Positions 6,986 through 11,358 of a DNA stretch of 16,505 nt are shown here, piece after piece (within the stretch, counting starts at the first letter, position 1; each line of letters starts with the position of its first letter). Under the pieces are notes generated by a model, which did no database searches, was not told where the DNA came from, and was given only the letters and a program-made list of their open reading frames with translations. Origin of the DNA: a virus; UHGV virus genome UHGV-0075529, one strand, 5' to 3'. A program made the translations under genes and the position numbers.

Positions 6986-7957
6986 TCAGTAATGAATTTT
7001 CGCGCAGGGGATTAGGTCGTCTTTAAGTGCGGTGAGCACTTCGATAGCCTGTTCGCGGGTTAAGCTGGTGTGGCTGGTGAGCGCGTTAACGATGTTGGTG
7101 CCGACCGTCTTGCGGTGCTTCACGTCAGCTTCGCGCTTTGCCTGTTCATCGGCGAGGCGCTTCTCTTCGGCCAGGCGAGCATCTTCGGCCTGTTTTGCCT
7201 TGTGGCGCTCAGCTTCCACTGCCGCAGCTTTTTCTCTTTCCGCCCGGGCTTCTGCTTCCTTCTTCTCGCGTGTCGCACGCTGTTCCGCTTCAATGCGCTG
7301 GCGTTCCGCCAGCTCTGCACGCGCTTTCTCTTCAGCTTCACGGCGCGCTGCGGCTTCAATTTCTGCTTTGTGCTTCGCTTCGGCATCGCGTCGGGCTTGC
7401 TCTGCCGCTTCACTCTTAATGCGCTCTTCATGCTCACGTTGAGCCTGTTCCGCCAGGCGGCGCTGCTCTTCGCGGTCCCGGTCAAAATCCTTATTCATCA
7501 GCAGAGCCATTTCGTGGTCCGCTTCGAACTGAATAGCCCGCTGCAAATCGATGCTCTCGTTCATCACCAGTGCTTCGGCGTGCATCGCGTTCATGGCTTC
7601 TTCAGCCTTAATACGTTCCTGCTCGGCTTCCCATTCGGTAAGTGGGCGCCGTACTTCATCCTTCAGCGCGTCCAGCCTCTCACGCACAATGCGGCGGCTT
7701 TCGTCGATCTGCTTCGGCAGGGCTTTAAGCTCGGCAACCAGATCCTTGCCGGCGTTGTCGATATAGGTTTTGGAGCGGGCAACCTTATGCGCCATGGATG
7801 CGATCGCGTCGCGGCCTTTGCGGGTCGACACATCCGGTACCAGGCTGCGAGCTTCTTTCTCGATCGCCTCAATAATAGGGTCGAGCTGCTCTTTGGTGGT
7901 GAATACCGCCATTGCGTTCTGTTTCTCAATGACGACTAAATCCGTTACTTCGCTCAT
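6986..7957 (-). CDS. Low-complexity coiled-coil protein, 323 aa (Ala/Glu/Arg/Lys-rich centre)
   Basis: Uninterrupted ORF with strong SD (AGGAGA); central ~150 aa is a charged repeat (EAEQRATREKKEAEARAEREKAAAVEAERHKAKQ...) between non-repetitive termini. Confidence 0.7.
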   Translation of the reverse strand: MSEVTDLVVIEKQNAMAVFTTKEQLDPIIEAIEKEARSLVPDVSTRKGRDAIASMAHKVARSKTYIDNAGKDLVAELKALPKQIDESRRIVRERLDALKDEVRRPLTEWEAEQERIKAEEAMNAMHAEALVMNESIDLQRAIQFEADHEMALLMNKDFDRDREEQRRLAEQAQREHEERIKSEAAEQARRDAEAKHKAEIEAAARREAEEKARAELAERQRIEAEQRATREKKEAEARAEREKAAAVEAERHKAKQAEDARLAEEKRLADEQAKREADVKHRKTVGTNIVNALTSHTSLTREQAIEVLTALKDDLIPCAKIHY

Positions 7958-8025
7958 GGTTTCTCCTGAAATTTGGATGTGCAGATGCCGCCCGCATAAG
8001 CCAGGCCGATCGGTTGAATAGGGGG

Positions 8026-8166
8026 TTAGGCTGTTTTTCTATGCCACGGATAACCGATGGCGACCTTCATTTCGTCGTAGGCTGCCATCCACATGGCGCC
8101 ATCACCGATAAACAGGGCAATGGCTGCTTTACTCTGCGCTGCGCGCAGCAGGTGATGATTGATCAT
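8026..8166 (-). CDS. kil: Kil-like small peptide, 46 aa (candidate cell-division inhibitor; not in the ORF track)
   Basis: Hand translation: MINHHLLRAAQSKAAIALFIGDGAMWMAAYDEMKVAIGYPWHRKTA; ATG overlaps the stop of the upstream small ORF; the ALFIGDGAMW segment resembles lambda Kil as I recall it (unverified). Confidence 0.4.
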   Translation of the reverse strand: MINHHLLRAAQSKAAIALFIGDGAMWMAAYDEMKVAIGYPWHRKTA

Positions 8167-8321
8167 GCCTTCACCTCAACCTGTTTCATGAGGCCAGCGA
8201 TATTCATCTGTTGGCGGTTCAGCGTCAGCTTGTCGCGCGGTGCCGATACCGACGTCAACTGCCACTCGTTATCGTTGAGTTTTTTGGCGGTGTACTGCTT
8301 GCCGTTGTGGGTGACTGTCAT
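8163..8321 (-). CDS. Small hypothetical protein, 52 aa (not in the ORF track)
   Basis: Hand translation: MTVTHNGKQYTAKKLNDNEWQLTSVSAPRDKLTLNRQQMNIAGLMKQVEVKA; strong SD GGAGGAATC directly upstream; ATGA overlaps at both ends. Confidence 0.45.
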   Translation of the reverse strand: MTVTHNGKQYTAKKLNDNEWQLTSVSAPRDKLTLNRQQMNIAGLMKQVEVKA

Positions 8322-8557
8322 GATTCCTCCCGAGCGCGGAGCATTGCGTCAGCTATCTGGTACGCTTCGGTTGCCGTGCGGTCATCGCTACACAACCAGT
8401 CAGGATTGGCTAATCGACCCTGCATAGCCTTGGCCGCGAAGTAATCGCGTAGGGTCATGCCGCCAGAGCTGACTTCGAAACCATGTAAGTGACCAACTTC
8501 GTCGCGCTCCACGATAGAATCACACGGGAAAGCGCGCCCTCCAGTTTTGTTGCTCAT
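8318..8557 (-). CDS. Hypothetical phage protein, 79 aa
   Basis: ORF with SD AAGAGGG upstream of ATG 8557; first gene after the leftward terminator. Confidence 0.6.
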   Translation of the reverse strand: MSNKTGGRAFPCDSIVERDEVGHLHGFEVSSGGMTLRDYFAAKAMQGRLANPDWLCSDDRTATEAYQIADAMLRAREES

Positions 8558-8691
8558 AAACCCTCTTGGCCTTATCGCGGCGAACGGAACGGTTAATACA
8601 AGACTTCAACGCATTTATTCAGTGTTTCAATGGGCGGTGGATGGCCGCCGGTTGTCATAACTTGAGCCACTCGTAAATGACCCCAGGTATG

Positions 8692-8714
8692 AAAAAAGCC
8701 GCTGGTTAGGCGGC
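8692..8714 (-). terminator. Intrinsic terminator (minus strand), tL1-like position downstream of the pL-proximal genes
   Basis: Stem GCCGC (8698-8702) / GCGGC (8710-8714), loop TGGTTAG, followed on the minus strand by TTTTTT (plus A-run 8692-8697). Confidence 0.65.
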
Positions 8715-8873
8715 TCTGTTAATCCATTCTCGTGCGTTGCGTCGGCACATCCATGCCAGCTTTACCCAAAGGTCATGAAACCCATCACCACGCACTGATG
8801 CTCGACATTTTTTGCGGTACTGCCTGTAATCTTCACTGCACTCGGCAGCATATTTATCAGTTGTGCTTTGCAT
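8706..8873 (-). CDS. Small hypothetical Cys-containing protein, 55 aa (not in the ORF track)
   Basis: Hand translation: MQSTTDKYAAECSEDYRQYRKKCRASVRGDGFHDLWVKLAWMCRRNAREWINRAA; SD GAGGGT upstream; its stop lies in the loop of the 8692-8714 terminator. Confidence 0.4.
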   Translation of the reverse strand: MQSTTDKYAAECSEDYRQYRKKCRASVRGDGFHDLWVKLAWMCRRNAREWINRAA

Positions 8874-8930
8874 GCTCTTACCCTCTGTCGTTACCCGCTG
8901 ATGCGGGAGAAATTCTTTATCTATCAGCTG

Positions 8931-9143
8931 CTACAACTCATCACGAATCTGTGAGAGTGTGCTGATCGCCTGGTAATGACCGCGACGCTGCTCTTCTGTT
9001 TTGAACGCGCGCATATCGTCTTTTATCGATGCGATTGCCTTATTCAGAACTTCCACTTGCGCTTCTTTAATCGCCTGTTTGCGTGGCTTCTGACGCTTCT
9101 TAGGAAGGTCTCTTAAACACGCCGGAATGTATGTCTGAGTCAT
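8931..9143 (-). CDS. Basic 70-aa protein, first gene downstream of pL (N position; antiterminator identity unproven)
   Basis: ORF with SD AAGAGGA; Lys/Arg-rich stretch LPKKRQKPRKQAIKEAQ near the N-terminus; position matches lambda N. Confidence 0.5.
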   Translation of the reverse strand: MTQTYIPACLRDLPKKRQKPRKQAIKEAQVEVLNKAIASIKDDMRAFKTEEQRRGHYQAISTLSQIRDEL

Positions 9144-9348
9144 AAAAAATCCTCTTGTGATTCAGCACAGCCCACTCAGCTTCGAATGGACTGGAATAAA
9201 TCTTTTTTTCGCTTTGCCATAATTGCCGCTCTCCCTGAGCCCGCCTATGGTCCGACGCATGGTTTACTGTCGCGCCGTTCGACTGACCGAATCTCCACTT
9301 CGCCGCTGGCTAACTTCGCTCAGCTGTCGATGTTTCGTTTCGATGGGG

Positions 9349-9430
9349 TAAATTTAGCGTGATGCTAAATTATGCGCAATAGCAAAATGCTAAATTGTTG
9401 AATGGTTTTATTTAGCGTATTGATTAATAA
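9349..9430 (-). promoter_or_regulatory. OL operator triplet with pL promoter
   Basis: 17-bp sites TTTAGC-N5-GCTAAA at 9353-9369 (perfect), 9378-9394 and 9411-9427 (imperfect); on the minus strand -35 TTGCGC (9379-9374), 17-bp spacer, -10 TAAATT (9356-9351). Confidence 0.6.
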
Positions 9431-9466
9431 GCGATTAAAAATTTACAGCGAAGGAATTCGGGACGT

Positions 9467-9490
9467 AAAAAAGCCCGCGCGATGGCGGGC
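9467..9490 (-). terminator. Intrinsic terminator downstream of cI (minus strand)
   Basis: Stem GCCCGC (9473-9478) / GCGGGC (9485-9490), loop GCGATG, followed on the minus strand by TTTTTT (plus A-run 9467-9472). Confidence 0.6.
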
Positions 9491-9510
9491 TTGAGGGGTT
9501 TTGCGTGAGG

Positions 9511-10188
9511 TTATGGGATGTTTAGTATTTTGGCATCAACCACAACGCCGATGATTTTGCAGTTTCCATTAATTTCTAGCATTGGATATGCGGGGTTAAG
9601 GGGCTTTAGGAAGCGTCTGCCGGCATCGATTACAAGCTTCTTAAAGGTCGCTTCGTTATCGCCTTCTAGCTTCGCGACAACCAGCTTTCCGTTGCGCGGC
9701 TCGACTTCAGGATCAACAAGTATCGCTGCTCCCTCGGGTATGCTCAGTCCAGCCGGGGAGGTCATAGAATCCCCTTTAACGTCCAGCCAGAATGAATCTT
9801 CTGAGCAGTCAACAGTCGTGTCATACCAGCGATCTATCGCTCTTCGGTGATAAGGTTCTACAGCTTCCATCCATTGCCCCGCGCTTACCCAGCTGATTAC
9901 AGGATAACTTCCTTTTGTCTCGTTCAGTCCTCGAAATGCAACGTTCGAAGGTTCTTCACTGGCGTGTAAAACATCCATCCAGCCAAAAGGCAGATCAAGC
10001 GCAGTTTCAATTTTGCGAGCCATCTTATCGCCGATATTGCGATGAGGGTTTGGTCCCAGTAGCTGGCTAAGCGCAGCCGGACTTGTCTCGATGAGCTCGG
10101 CAAACTGCGCTTTGGTCATTCCAGACTCGTGCTGACGCTTCTCGTACAGCGCTTCCAGGTTGGCTTTTCTGATTTCTTTATTTTCCAT
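9511..10188 (-). CDS. cI: cI-type prophage repressor (N-terminal HTH, C-terminal S24 LexA-like autopeptidase)
   Basis: Start taken at ATG 10188 (MENKEIRKANLEA...); C-terminal domain has the catalytic Ser in GDSM, a downstream Lys, and an Ala-Gly candidate cleavage site (SWVSAGQW). The ORF track runs to 10305 across the operators. Confidence 0.88.
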   Translation of the reverse strand: MENKEIRKANLEALYEKRQHESGMTKAQFAELIETSPAALSQLLGPNPHRNIGDKMARKIETALDLPFGWMDVLHASEEPSNVAFRGLNETKGSYPVISWVSAGQWMEAVEPYHRRAIDRWYDTTVDCSEDSFWLDVKGDSMTSPAGLSIPEGAAILVDPEVEPRNGKLVVAKLEGDNEATFKKLVIDAGRRFLKPLNPAYPMLEINGNCKIIGVVVDAKILNIP

Positions 10189-10304
10189 ACCTGCATTGTT
10201 ACTGCTTTTAGCAAAATGATAAATATGCAAATTGCTAAATGATGCTTGCGTAGTATTTAGCATAACGCTAAACTCCAAATCAAACGACTCACCCGGAGAC
10301 ACCA
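10189..10304. promoter_or_regulatory. OR operator triplet with divergent PRM/PR promoters
   Basis: 17-bp sites at 10207-10223 (TTTAGC-AAAAT-GATAAA), 10223-10239 (weak) and 10256-10272 (perfect TTTAGC-ATAAC-GCTAAA); PR candidate -35 TTGCGT (10246-10251), 17-bp spacer, -10 TAAACT (10269-10274). Confidence 0.7.
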
Positions 10305-10538
10305 ATGAGCACTGAACTACACCGCTGGCGCAAGGCCGCCACTACCGACGAATGGGCGCAGCTCGCAAAGTTGGCTAACACGACGCCAGGTTACCTGGAC
10401 CAGATCGCCTACGGAAATCGCCGGGCATCTCCAGAAATGGCATCTGCTATCGAGAAAGGCACGAAGAATTTTCACCGCCAGGCTCCGGTCCTAAAAGAAA
10501 GCCTGGTATTCGCATCGCCGCGTGATACTGCGGCCTAA
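10305..10538 (+). CDS. cro: Cro-like / YdaS-family HTH DNA-binding protein
   Basis: 77-aa ORF divergent from cI across the operator region; SD GGAGA 7 nt upstream; HTH-like segment EWAQLAKLANTTPGYLDQIAYGNR. Confidence 0.65.
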   Translation: MSTELHRWRKAATTDEWAQLAKLANTTPGYLDQIAYGNRRASPEMASAIEKGTKNFHRQAPVLKESLVFASPRDTAA

Positions 10539-11122: not shown

Positions 11123-11211
11123 TGGGAAGTATCAAAAACGGCGAAAGCCAGTCTGCTCGAACAGAACTGGCCTTCAGATGCAAATCGTGTGCACTCATTG
11201 CAGGAGGAATA

Positions 11212-11358
11212 ATGGCAAAAAATCCACGCTATTACCATACCGCTGTACATAAAAACATAACCCGCGACCGCTTCATCCGCTCGGTTAACCCGATTGTGGC
11301 AGAGAAGATGCGCGCCATCCTGGAAGAACTGAAACGTAAGGAGAGTGGCCGTGGGTAA
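11212..11358 (+). CDS. Small hypothetical protein, 48 aa (or 78 aa from ATG 11122)
   Basis: Strong SD AGGAGG 5-6 nt upstream of ATG 11212 (MAKNPRYYHTAVHKNITRDRF...); the ORF track extends to 11119 overlapping the upstream stop. Confidence 0.45.
   Translation: MAKNPRYYHTAVHKNITRDRFIRSVNPIVAEKMRAILEELKRKESGRG

Follow-up and report, generated by a model that had tools for sequence, protein, structure and literature searches.

A putL-type antiterminator RNA in the early-left leader of a lambdoid prophage, and its probable role in the read-through of a phi80-like terminator

The early-left leader of a lambdoid prophage, present in a DNA stretch of 16,505 nucleotides (UHGV virus genome UHGV-0075529, hereafter the window), encodes on its minus strand, at 9284..9213, an antiterminator RNA of the HK022 putL type, which was recognized by blastn and by a covariance model. 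The element lies after the operators and the leftward promoter pL (9351-9428) and before an intrinsic terminator at 8717..8692. We consider it very probable that this put RNA acts in cis to mediate read-through of the latter, a terminator of the phi80 tL1A type, as well as of later terminators, and that it does so with no help from the basic 70-residue protein encoded downstream of it. The element is a near-copy of an RNA antitermination system that has been described before, and in this sense the finding is already known.

The genomic setting of the element is the immunity and early-left layout of a lambdoid prophage, as is evident from its operators and from matches to PHROG families. The latter identified a CI-like repressor on the minus strand (9511..10305) and Cro-like and CII-like genes on the plus strand. 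The operator is a 19-bp palindrome, ATTTAGC-N5-GCTAAAT, six copies of which flank the repressor gene, three per side: those of OL (9352-9370, 9377-9395 and 9410-9428) overlap the minus-strand pL, while those of OR are found within 10206-10273. A pattern search found this palindrome 8 times in the window, where 0.6 occurrences would be expected by chance, with clusters at OL and OR. The -35 element of pL (TTGCGC) is at 9379..9374 on the minus strand; its -10 element (TAAATT) is placed at 9356..9351 by comparison with pL as annotated in phi80 and HK639, and the leftward transcript should start near 9344. Thereafter, the minus strand offers a leader of about 200 nt, the 70-aa ORF, a spacer of 57 nt, a 55-aa ORF and the intrinsic terminator. 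The leader, the two ORFs and the terminator had been reported in an initial annotation of the region, and all are present in the sequence, the strength of the terminator being the sole point that needs qualification. The operon does continue past the terminator, as had also been claimed: the first genes beyond it encode proteins of 79 aa and 52 aa and kil (8026..8557, minus strand, PHROG assignments), and further left, to about 5063, PHROG matches mark a gam-like gene, recT and an exonuclease gene (exo), with a methyltransferase gene also in the operon. The argument that these genes call for some mechanism of read-through is likewise supported, and the put RNA supplies an answer to it. A second, clean intrinsic terminator (9471-9492, minus strand; 8 pairs, -14.6 kcal/mol, z -4.5) is situated between the repressor gene and OL/pL, and would insulate pL from repressor transcripts.

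The initial annotation had found, by eye, neither a canonical boxA nor a lambda-like boxB in the leader, and had surmised that the mechanism might differ from that of lambda N/nut. Both observations hold under systematic searches. 13-mer matches to boxA (CGCTCTTTA-like, with up to 3 mismatches) are as frequent as chance predicts and none of them is located in 9144-9346, and an enumeration of hairpins across the leader gave none that combines a preceding boxA with a GC-rich stem and a GNRA-like pentaloop. Along with the lack of any N-family match in Pfam, these results favor a mechanism distinct from lambda N/nut. In a megablast comparison with phage genomes, positions 9346..9209 of the window proved to be 96% identical to the pL leader of HK639, and this match overlaps a GenBank feature labeled 'putL-like antiterminator RNA'. 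When a 95-nt core was used as the query, blastn recovered HK022 putL at 78% identity (E 4e-5), features annotated as 'putL' in HK75 and O276 at the same 78%, and unannotated copies of put in CobraSix, S9-5, phiEt88, UPF_BP1 and others.

Rfam has no put family, and searches against it at the gathering threshold and at permissive thresholds returned nothing relevant, with noise on the terminator only. Hence, we built a covariance model of our own, R1, from seven putL sequences, taking the nested base pairs from the cryo-EM structure of HK022. R1 recovers both HK022 elements, putL with 97 bits and putR, which is more divergent, with 43 bits, and its score at 9284..9213 is 91.6 bits (E 4.5e-20). 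A put covariance model had been among the checks proposed in the initial annotation, and it identifies the leader element as a putL of the HK022/HK639 type. The window contains no second put or putR detectable by R1, the next-best match standing at 10 bits (E 0.4); putR is also absent, within the sequence fetched, from HK639-, CobraSix- and window-type loci, and is present in HK022-type loci. Minimum free energy (MFE) z-scores of put were not significant, and given that this is true even of HK022 putL, thermodynamic stability is not diagnostic for this element.

In HK022 numbering, the parts of the window element are a 5' duplex (3-7/15-19), stem I (10-14/30-34) and a stem II with a GCGGG/CGGCAAU internal region; the bulge with the -10-like AACCAU falls at 9264..9259 and G35 at 9252. 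The HK022 put is reported to overcome intrinsic as well as rho-dependent terminators at distances of up to 10 kb without any phage factor, and the essential residues of its putL are the A3-G7/C15-U19 duplex, A9, U28, G35, G45, A64 and the G43-G47 segment (Hwang et al. 2022, PMC9378689). The window is identical at A9, U28 (within AACCAU), G35, G43-G47 (9244..9240) and A64, and it keeps the 5' duplex by means of a compensatory swap of A5-U17 for U5-A17. We infer that the window element works like HK022 putL.

The main reason for caution regarding its activity lies in stem II. In HK022, deletion of the bulged U68 abolishes antitermination and spares anti-pausing, and in MFE folds of the window and HK639 elements the lower helix of stem II is uninterrupted, with no U68-type bulge; such a bulge is present in HK022 and CobraSix, and other natural variants place it elsewhere. 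It might be held on these grounds that put in the window is active as an anti-pausing element only, or is a decaying remnant, and that another factor provides the read-through. This is a doubtful proposition in light of the natural history of the variant: several viral contigs that are independent of one another and differ in the immunity region ahead of put have it in identical form, a pattern suggestive of selection, and nearly the same variant is annotated as an antiterminator RNA in HK639. Moreover, the other essential positions are all intact in the window. An intact antiterminator is the reading we prefer, and that of an anti-pausing element or remnant appears distinctly unlikely. King et al. 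2011 (J Bacteriol 193:5784) reportedly tested HK639 putL, and the label 'putL-like antiterminator RNA' reportedly comes from the group that studied HK639; the function of HK639 putL is taken here from its GenBank annotation.

The structure of put is further supported by covariation among its variants. When viral contigs were scanned for an exact pattern of the stem I core, at least 120 loci were retrieved; those listed have over 50 different sequences of put, whose stem II helices take many forms. Covariation was assessed in an alignment of 110 R1 hits, representing 53 distinct sequences, against the cryo-EM-derived pairs, including those of the pseudoknotted 5' duplex. In this alignment, which was fitted to the model structure and is to that extent biased in its favor, 94.7% of the cells across the 110 hits are paired, a share that drops to 26-46% once the partners have been shifted by 1-3 columns. 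Compensatory changes are seen in 14 of the 22 put pairs, and not one of 500 shuffles attains the observed pairing values. The margin is large despite the model-fitted alignment, and the compensatory changes can also be recognized on simple inspection.

The distance of put from the promoter is variable. Most copies among the loci listed are 25-60 nt downstream of the transcript start; that of the window begins about 60 nt past the inferred start, with its -10-like AACCAU near +81 and not near +23. In two viral contigs (L067:1204-1249 and L084:2810-2855), what comes after put stem I is not stem II but CGCTCTTTAACAA, which is a boxA consensus. These leaders look like put/nut recombinants, and such put/boxA hybrids are rare among the loci.

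The segment between the transcript start and put in the window is a leader of about 60 nt (9285..9344, minus strand), which was delineated by folding and conservation. Its fold consists of an outer stem, AUCGAA/UUCGGU, around a hairpin insert of 38 nt, with the hairpin GCUGaGC-GAAGUUA-GCcAGC. There is also a short form of the leader (CATCGAAAC-AACACAG-CGTTTCGGTC), with compensatory CGAGAC/GUCUCG variants. Upstream of put in viral contigs (L014-L133), the leader is conserved behind no fewer than 12 distinct operator/promoter sets. Phi80 and HK225, both of which have nutL in place of put, match the first 51 nt of this leader with 98% identity.

Comparisons with characterized and annotated systems help place the window element more precisely. 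With HK639 (GenBank HM208537), it shares 95-96% identity over 144 nt of pL leader and put (9352..9209), including the same leader of about 60 nt before put and the same bulge-less stem II. The two differ in their immunity regions (operators and repressor), in the genes after put (HK639_45 and HK639_44, versus the 70-aa and 55-aa ORFs of the window), and in the base after stem II, which is A and not U in the window, with the loss of a possible terminal A-U pair. The putL/putR elements of HK022 (cryo-EM structure 7XUE, PMC9378689) and that of the window have in common a two-stem architecture of about 70 nt, the 5' duplex and the reported essential nucleotides, as well as the location of put between pL and the first terminator in an operon with no N gene. 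Apart from their lower sequence identity and the difference in the U68-type bulge, they are set apart by the position of put (near +61 in the window, +3 in HK022), by the lack of a detected putR in the window, and by the first downstream gene, which is not nun in the window. The N-nut systems of lambda and phi80 share with the window their position in the operon and their biological purpose, and phi80 additionally shares the tL1A terminator, the start of the leader and the linker before the second gene; however, the window lacks boxA, boxB and an N-family protein, and has put at the place where phi80 and HK225 have nutL.

The right operons of the window and HK639 are alike in lacking an HK022-type putR and in having a hairpin element after cII. 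In the window, this element (11123-11212, plus strand) is located between the stop codon of the cII-like gene and a 48-aa ORF, and reads AAAGCC-[AGUCUG-CUCGAA-CAGAaCU]-GGCCUUC, followed by a second hairpin. Its architecture matches that of the HK639 'M3-like RNA' (HM208537 37910..37969), whereas the sequence of the stem is completely different. One or the other type of hairpin is found in 20 of the 130 putL loci listed, 1.8-3.9 kb from putL and on the opposite strand. The hairpin of the window is a candidate for a right-operon antiterminator RNA.

The first ORF after pL (9143..8931, minus strand; MTQTYIPACLRDLPKKRQKPRKQAIKEAQ..., with the SD sequence AGAGGA upstream) encodes the 70-aa protein, which the initial annotation had placed in the position of lambda N as a possible antiterminator. 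Its position and composition were correctly described: it is basic, with the N-terminal tail KKRQKPRKQ and a Lys/Arg-rich stretch at residues 14-22. The proposed role, on the other hand, is not supported by comparison with other phages. Were the protein a lambda-N-like antiterminator acting via an unrecognized RNA site in the leader, one candidate for that site would be a hairpin at 9190..9171 that travels with the gene in HK225; however, this hairpin is missing upstream of the homologue in APC_JM3.2, and was rejected as the cognate site. The protein is a member of phrog_5305 (E 2e-35) with no match to an N family in Pfam and no relative in the PDB, and sequence searches gave close unnamed relatives only. 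Its 100% identical counterpart in HK225, HK225_041, follows a phi80-type nutL with boxA, while a 49% identical homologue in APC_JM3.2 follows an HK022-type putL, implying that the gene has no constant partner RNA. A comparison of HK225 gp39 with phi80 N, made in search of an N protein in HK225, showed no similarity. In mEp213, a homologue of the 70-aa protein is encoded immediately downstream of the annotated N gene, and further homologues are found outside the lambdoid group, in Sasha-type, swi2-type and Vibrio phages.

As to put-bearing loci, a phrog_5305 gene follows put in 12 of the 130 putL loci listed and is absent from the remaining 118. Across genomes, put and the 70-aa gene are thus independent of each other. 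Lambda N is a disordered protein, whereas the AlphaFold (AF2) model of the 70-aa protein (pLDDT 84) predicts a stable two-helix hairpin formed by helices 21-46 and 50-69, with lower confidence in the tail; a fold search with this model returned only non-specific helical hairpins at E >1. That the protein is an N analogue, despite being basic and encoded first after pL, appears exceedingly improbable. It is better regarded, from its genomic associations, as the product of a mobile accessory gene that tends to lie just downstream of an antitermination device and is not the device itself. We may speculate, with little expectation of being right, that it is a trans-acting factor binding RNA or RNA polymerase, which modulates or exploits antitermination, for example in a Nun-like exclusion of competing phages, and, separately, that the 5' 'stem 0' leader of put-type and phi80 nut-type phages might be a further functional RNA module.

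The second ORF (8873..8706, minus strand), of 55 aa, contains three Cys and is preceded by the SD sequence GAGGG. The initial annotation had listed it as unannotated, and RefSeq has indeed left it out of a 99.9% identical E. coli prophage. While it has no match in PHROG, Pfam or the PDB, tblastn detected full-length homologues in five phages of Klebsiella, Chronis among them, at 59% identity, which supports it as a real gene; we consider that it probably is one. These phages lack put there, and the homologue comes first after the repressor gene, the operators being of the type seen in the window. In Chronis (L012:2330-2520), this operator type and a 264-aa repressor like that of the window are accompanied by a pL leader lacking put and by the 55-aa homologue in first place. 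The Chronis annotation CHRON_41 (L012:2520-2693) is in a frame other than that of the conserved 54-aa homologue.

The terminator that follows (8717..8692, minus strand) was recognized from its fold and from its identity to tL1A of phi80. The hairpin has the 5' arm AGCCGC (8715..8710), the loop CUAACCA (8709..8703) and the 3' arm GCGGCU (8702..8697), with a U-run to 8692. It had been called strong, but with 6 core pairs, a 7-nt loop and an energy of -12.8 kcal/mol (z -2.9) it is of moderate strength. The further claim that the stop codon of the 55-aa ORF lies in the loop is accurate, the TAA being at 8708..8706. Positions 8553..8715 of the window are 97.5% identical to phi80, where tL1A is annotated as a rho-independent terminator directly after N, and where the stop codon of N overlaps the first bases of the stem.

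The location of the stop codon raises the possibility of translation-coupled read-through, whereby the 5' arm of the hairpin would be occluded by a ribosome that completes the 55-aa ORF on the TAA within the loop. The terminator would then fail to form, and the downstream genes would depend for their expression on that translation and not on an antiterminator, be it RNA or protein. Ribosomes near a terminator lower its efficiency, the last two codons of the ORF (both Ala) constitute the 5' arm, the ORF has a good SD, and the overlap of the phi80 N stop codon with the stem offers a parallel. Yet, in 10 of the 130 putL loci listed, the same tL1A module adjoins ORFs that are unrelated, in registers that differ, and in Chronis there is no terminator at the end of the homologue of the 55-aa ORF. 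In addition, coupling would leave the read-through of later terminators unexplained, and a complete put is present upstream, an element that is sufficient by itself in HK022. As the principal mechanism, coupling seems very unlikely; even so, the terminator might be weakened by a ribosome stopping in the loop, and we retain this as a minor rival or a contributing effect. Given that the module abuts unrelated ORFs elsewhere, the stop codon within the loop is best read as a by-product of a gene cassette having been joined to a shared terminator module.

Other joints of this kind can be traced along the operon. An HK639-like leader and put (9352..9209) give way to an HK225-like module with the 70-aa gene (9217..8890), then to a linker (8918..8871) and the 55-aa gene, and at the left end of this mosaic are the phi80-like tL1A and the sequence downstream of it. 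The linker, CUCCCGCAUCAGCGGGUAACGACAGAGGGUAAG (8871..8918, minus strand), comprises the hairpin CCCGC-AUCA-GCGGG (-9 kcal/mol) and the SD of the next gene. It is conserved ahead of unrelated genes, preceding phi80 N, HK639_44, COBRASIX_50 and HK225_039 as well, and occurs in 44 of the 130 putL loci listed. It might represent a joint for recombination, or else a signal in translation or processing.

It is also conceivable that no antitermination takes place, and that the downstream genes are expressed owing to a leaky terminator or from a promoter in the gap at 8557-8700. The modest hairpin would be compatible with leakage, and an internal nun promoter is annotated downstream of putL in HK022/O276. 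A promoter/terminator consensus scan of 7900-10400 revealed no promoter-like site; this is weak evidence on internal promoters, as the scan missed pL and pR too. It also missed the tL1A-type terminator, probably because the extension of the stem consumes the U-run. The gap is part of the segment that is 97.5% identical to the tL1A-tL1B region of phi80, where no promoter is annotated, and the conservation of put itself favors antitermination. We consider an operon expressed without antitermination to be very unlikely.

Taken together with the precedent of HK022, these observations suggest the following course of events for the put RNA as the antiterminator. Transcription from pL would start near 9344, and the put RNA, of about 70 nt, would be synthesized some 60 nt later. 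By analogy with HK022, the nascent put would fold into a V-shaped structure of two stems and bind the zinc-binding domain of the β' subunit of the very polymerase that transcribed it. This polymerase would be rendered resistant to pauses and terminators in cis, with no phage protein, and could pass the terminator at 8717..8692 and any later ones to reach kil, gam, recT and exo. The terminator would then serve mainly to stop polymerases that have not transcribed put. Between put and the terminator, the 70-aa and 55-aa ORFs would be insertions of accessory genes that can be exchanged for others; the stop codon would be in the loop since that is where the gene cassette joins the terminator module.

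The points arising from the wider survey leave the current understanding of put as it is, and they have a bearing on annotation and on the natural range of these elements. Antisense 'hypothetical protein' CDSs are drawn over put in E. coli E3 (RefSeq) and in CobraSix (L134:1145-1366; L006:1321-1677). Annotation pipelines draw false antisense ORFs across put and overlook the adjacent small ORF. The usual placement of put 25-60 nt from the start bears on a published idea, namely that a promoter-proximal sigma-dependent pause aids the folding of putL. Elements of the putL type are common: no fewer than 120 viral contigs have one, and variants of stem II are numerous. Only a minority of lambdoid phages rely on an RNA, and not on an N protein, for early antitermination, and the prophage of the window would be one of them.
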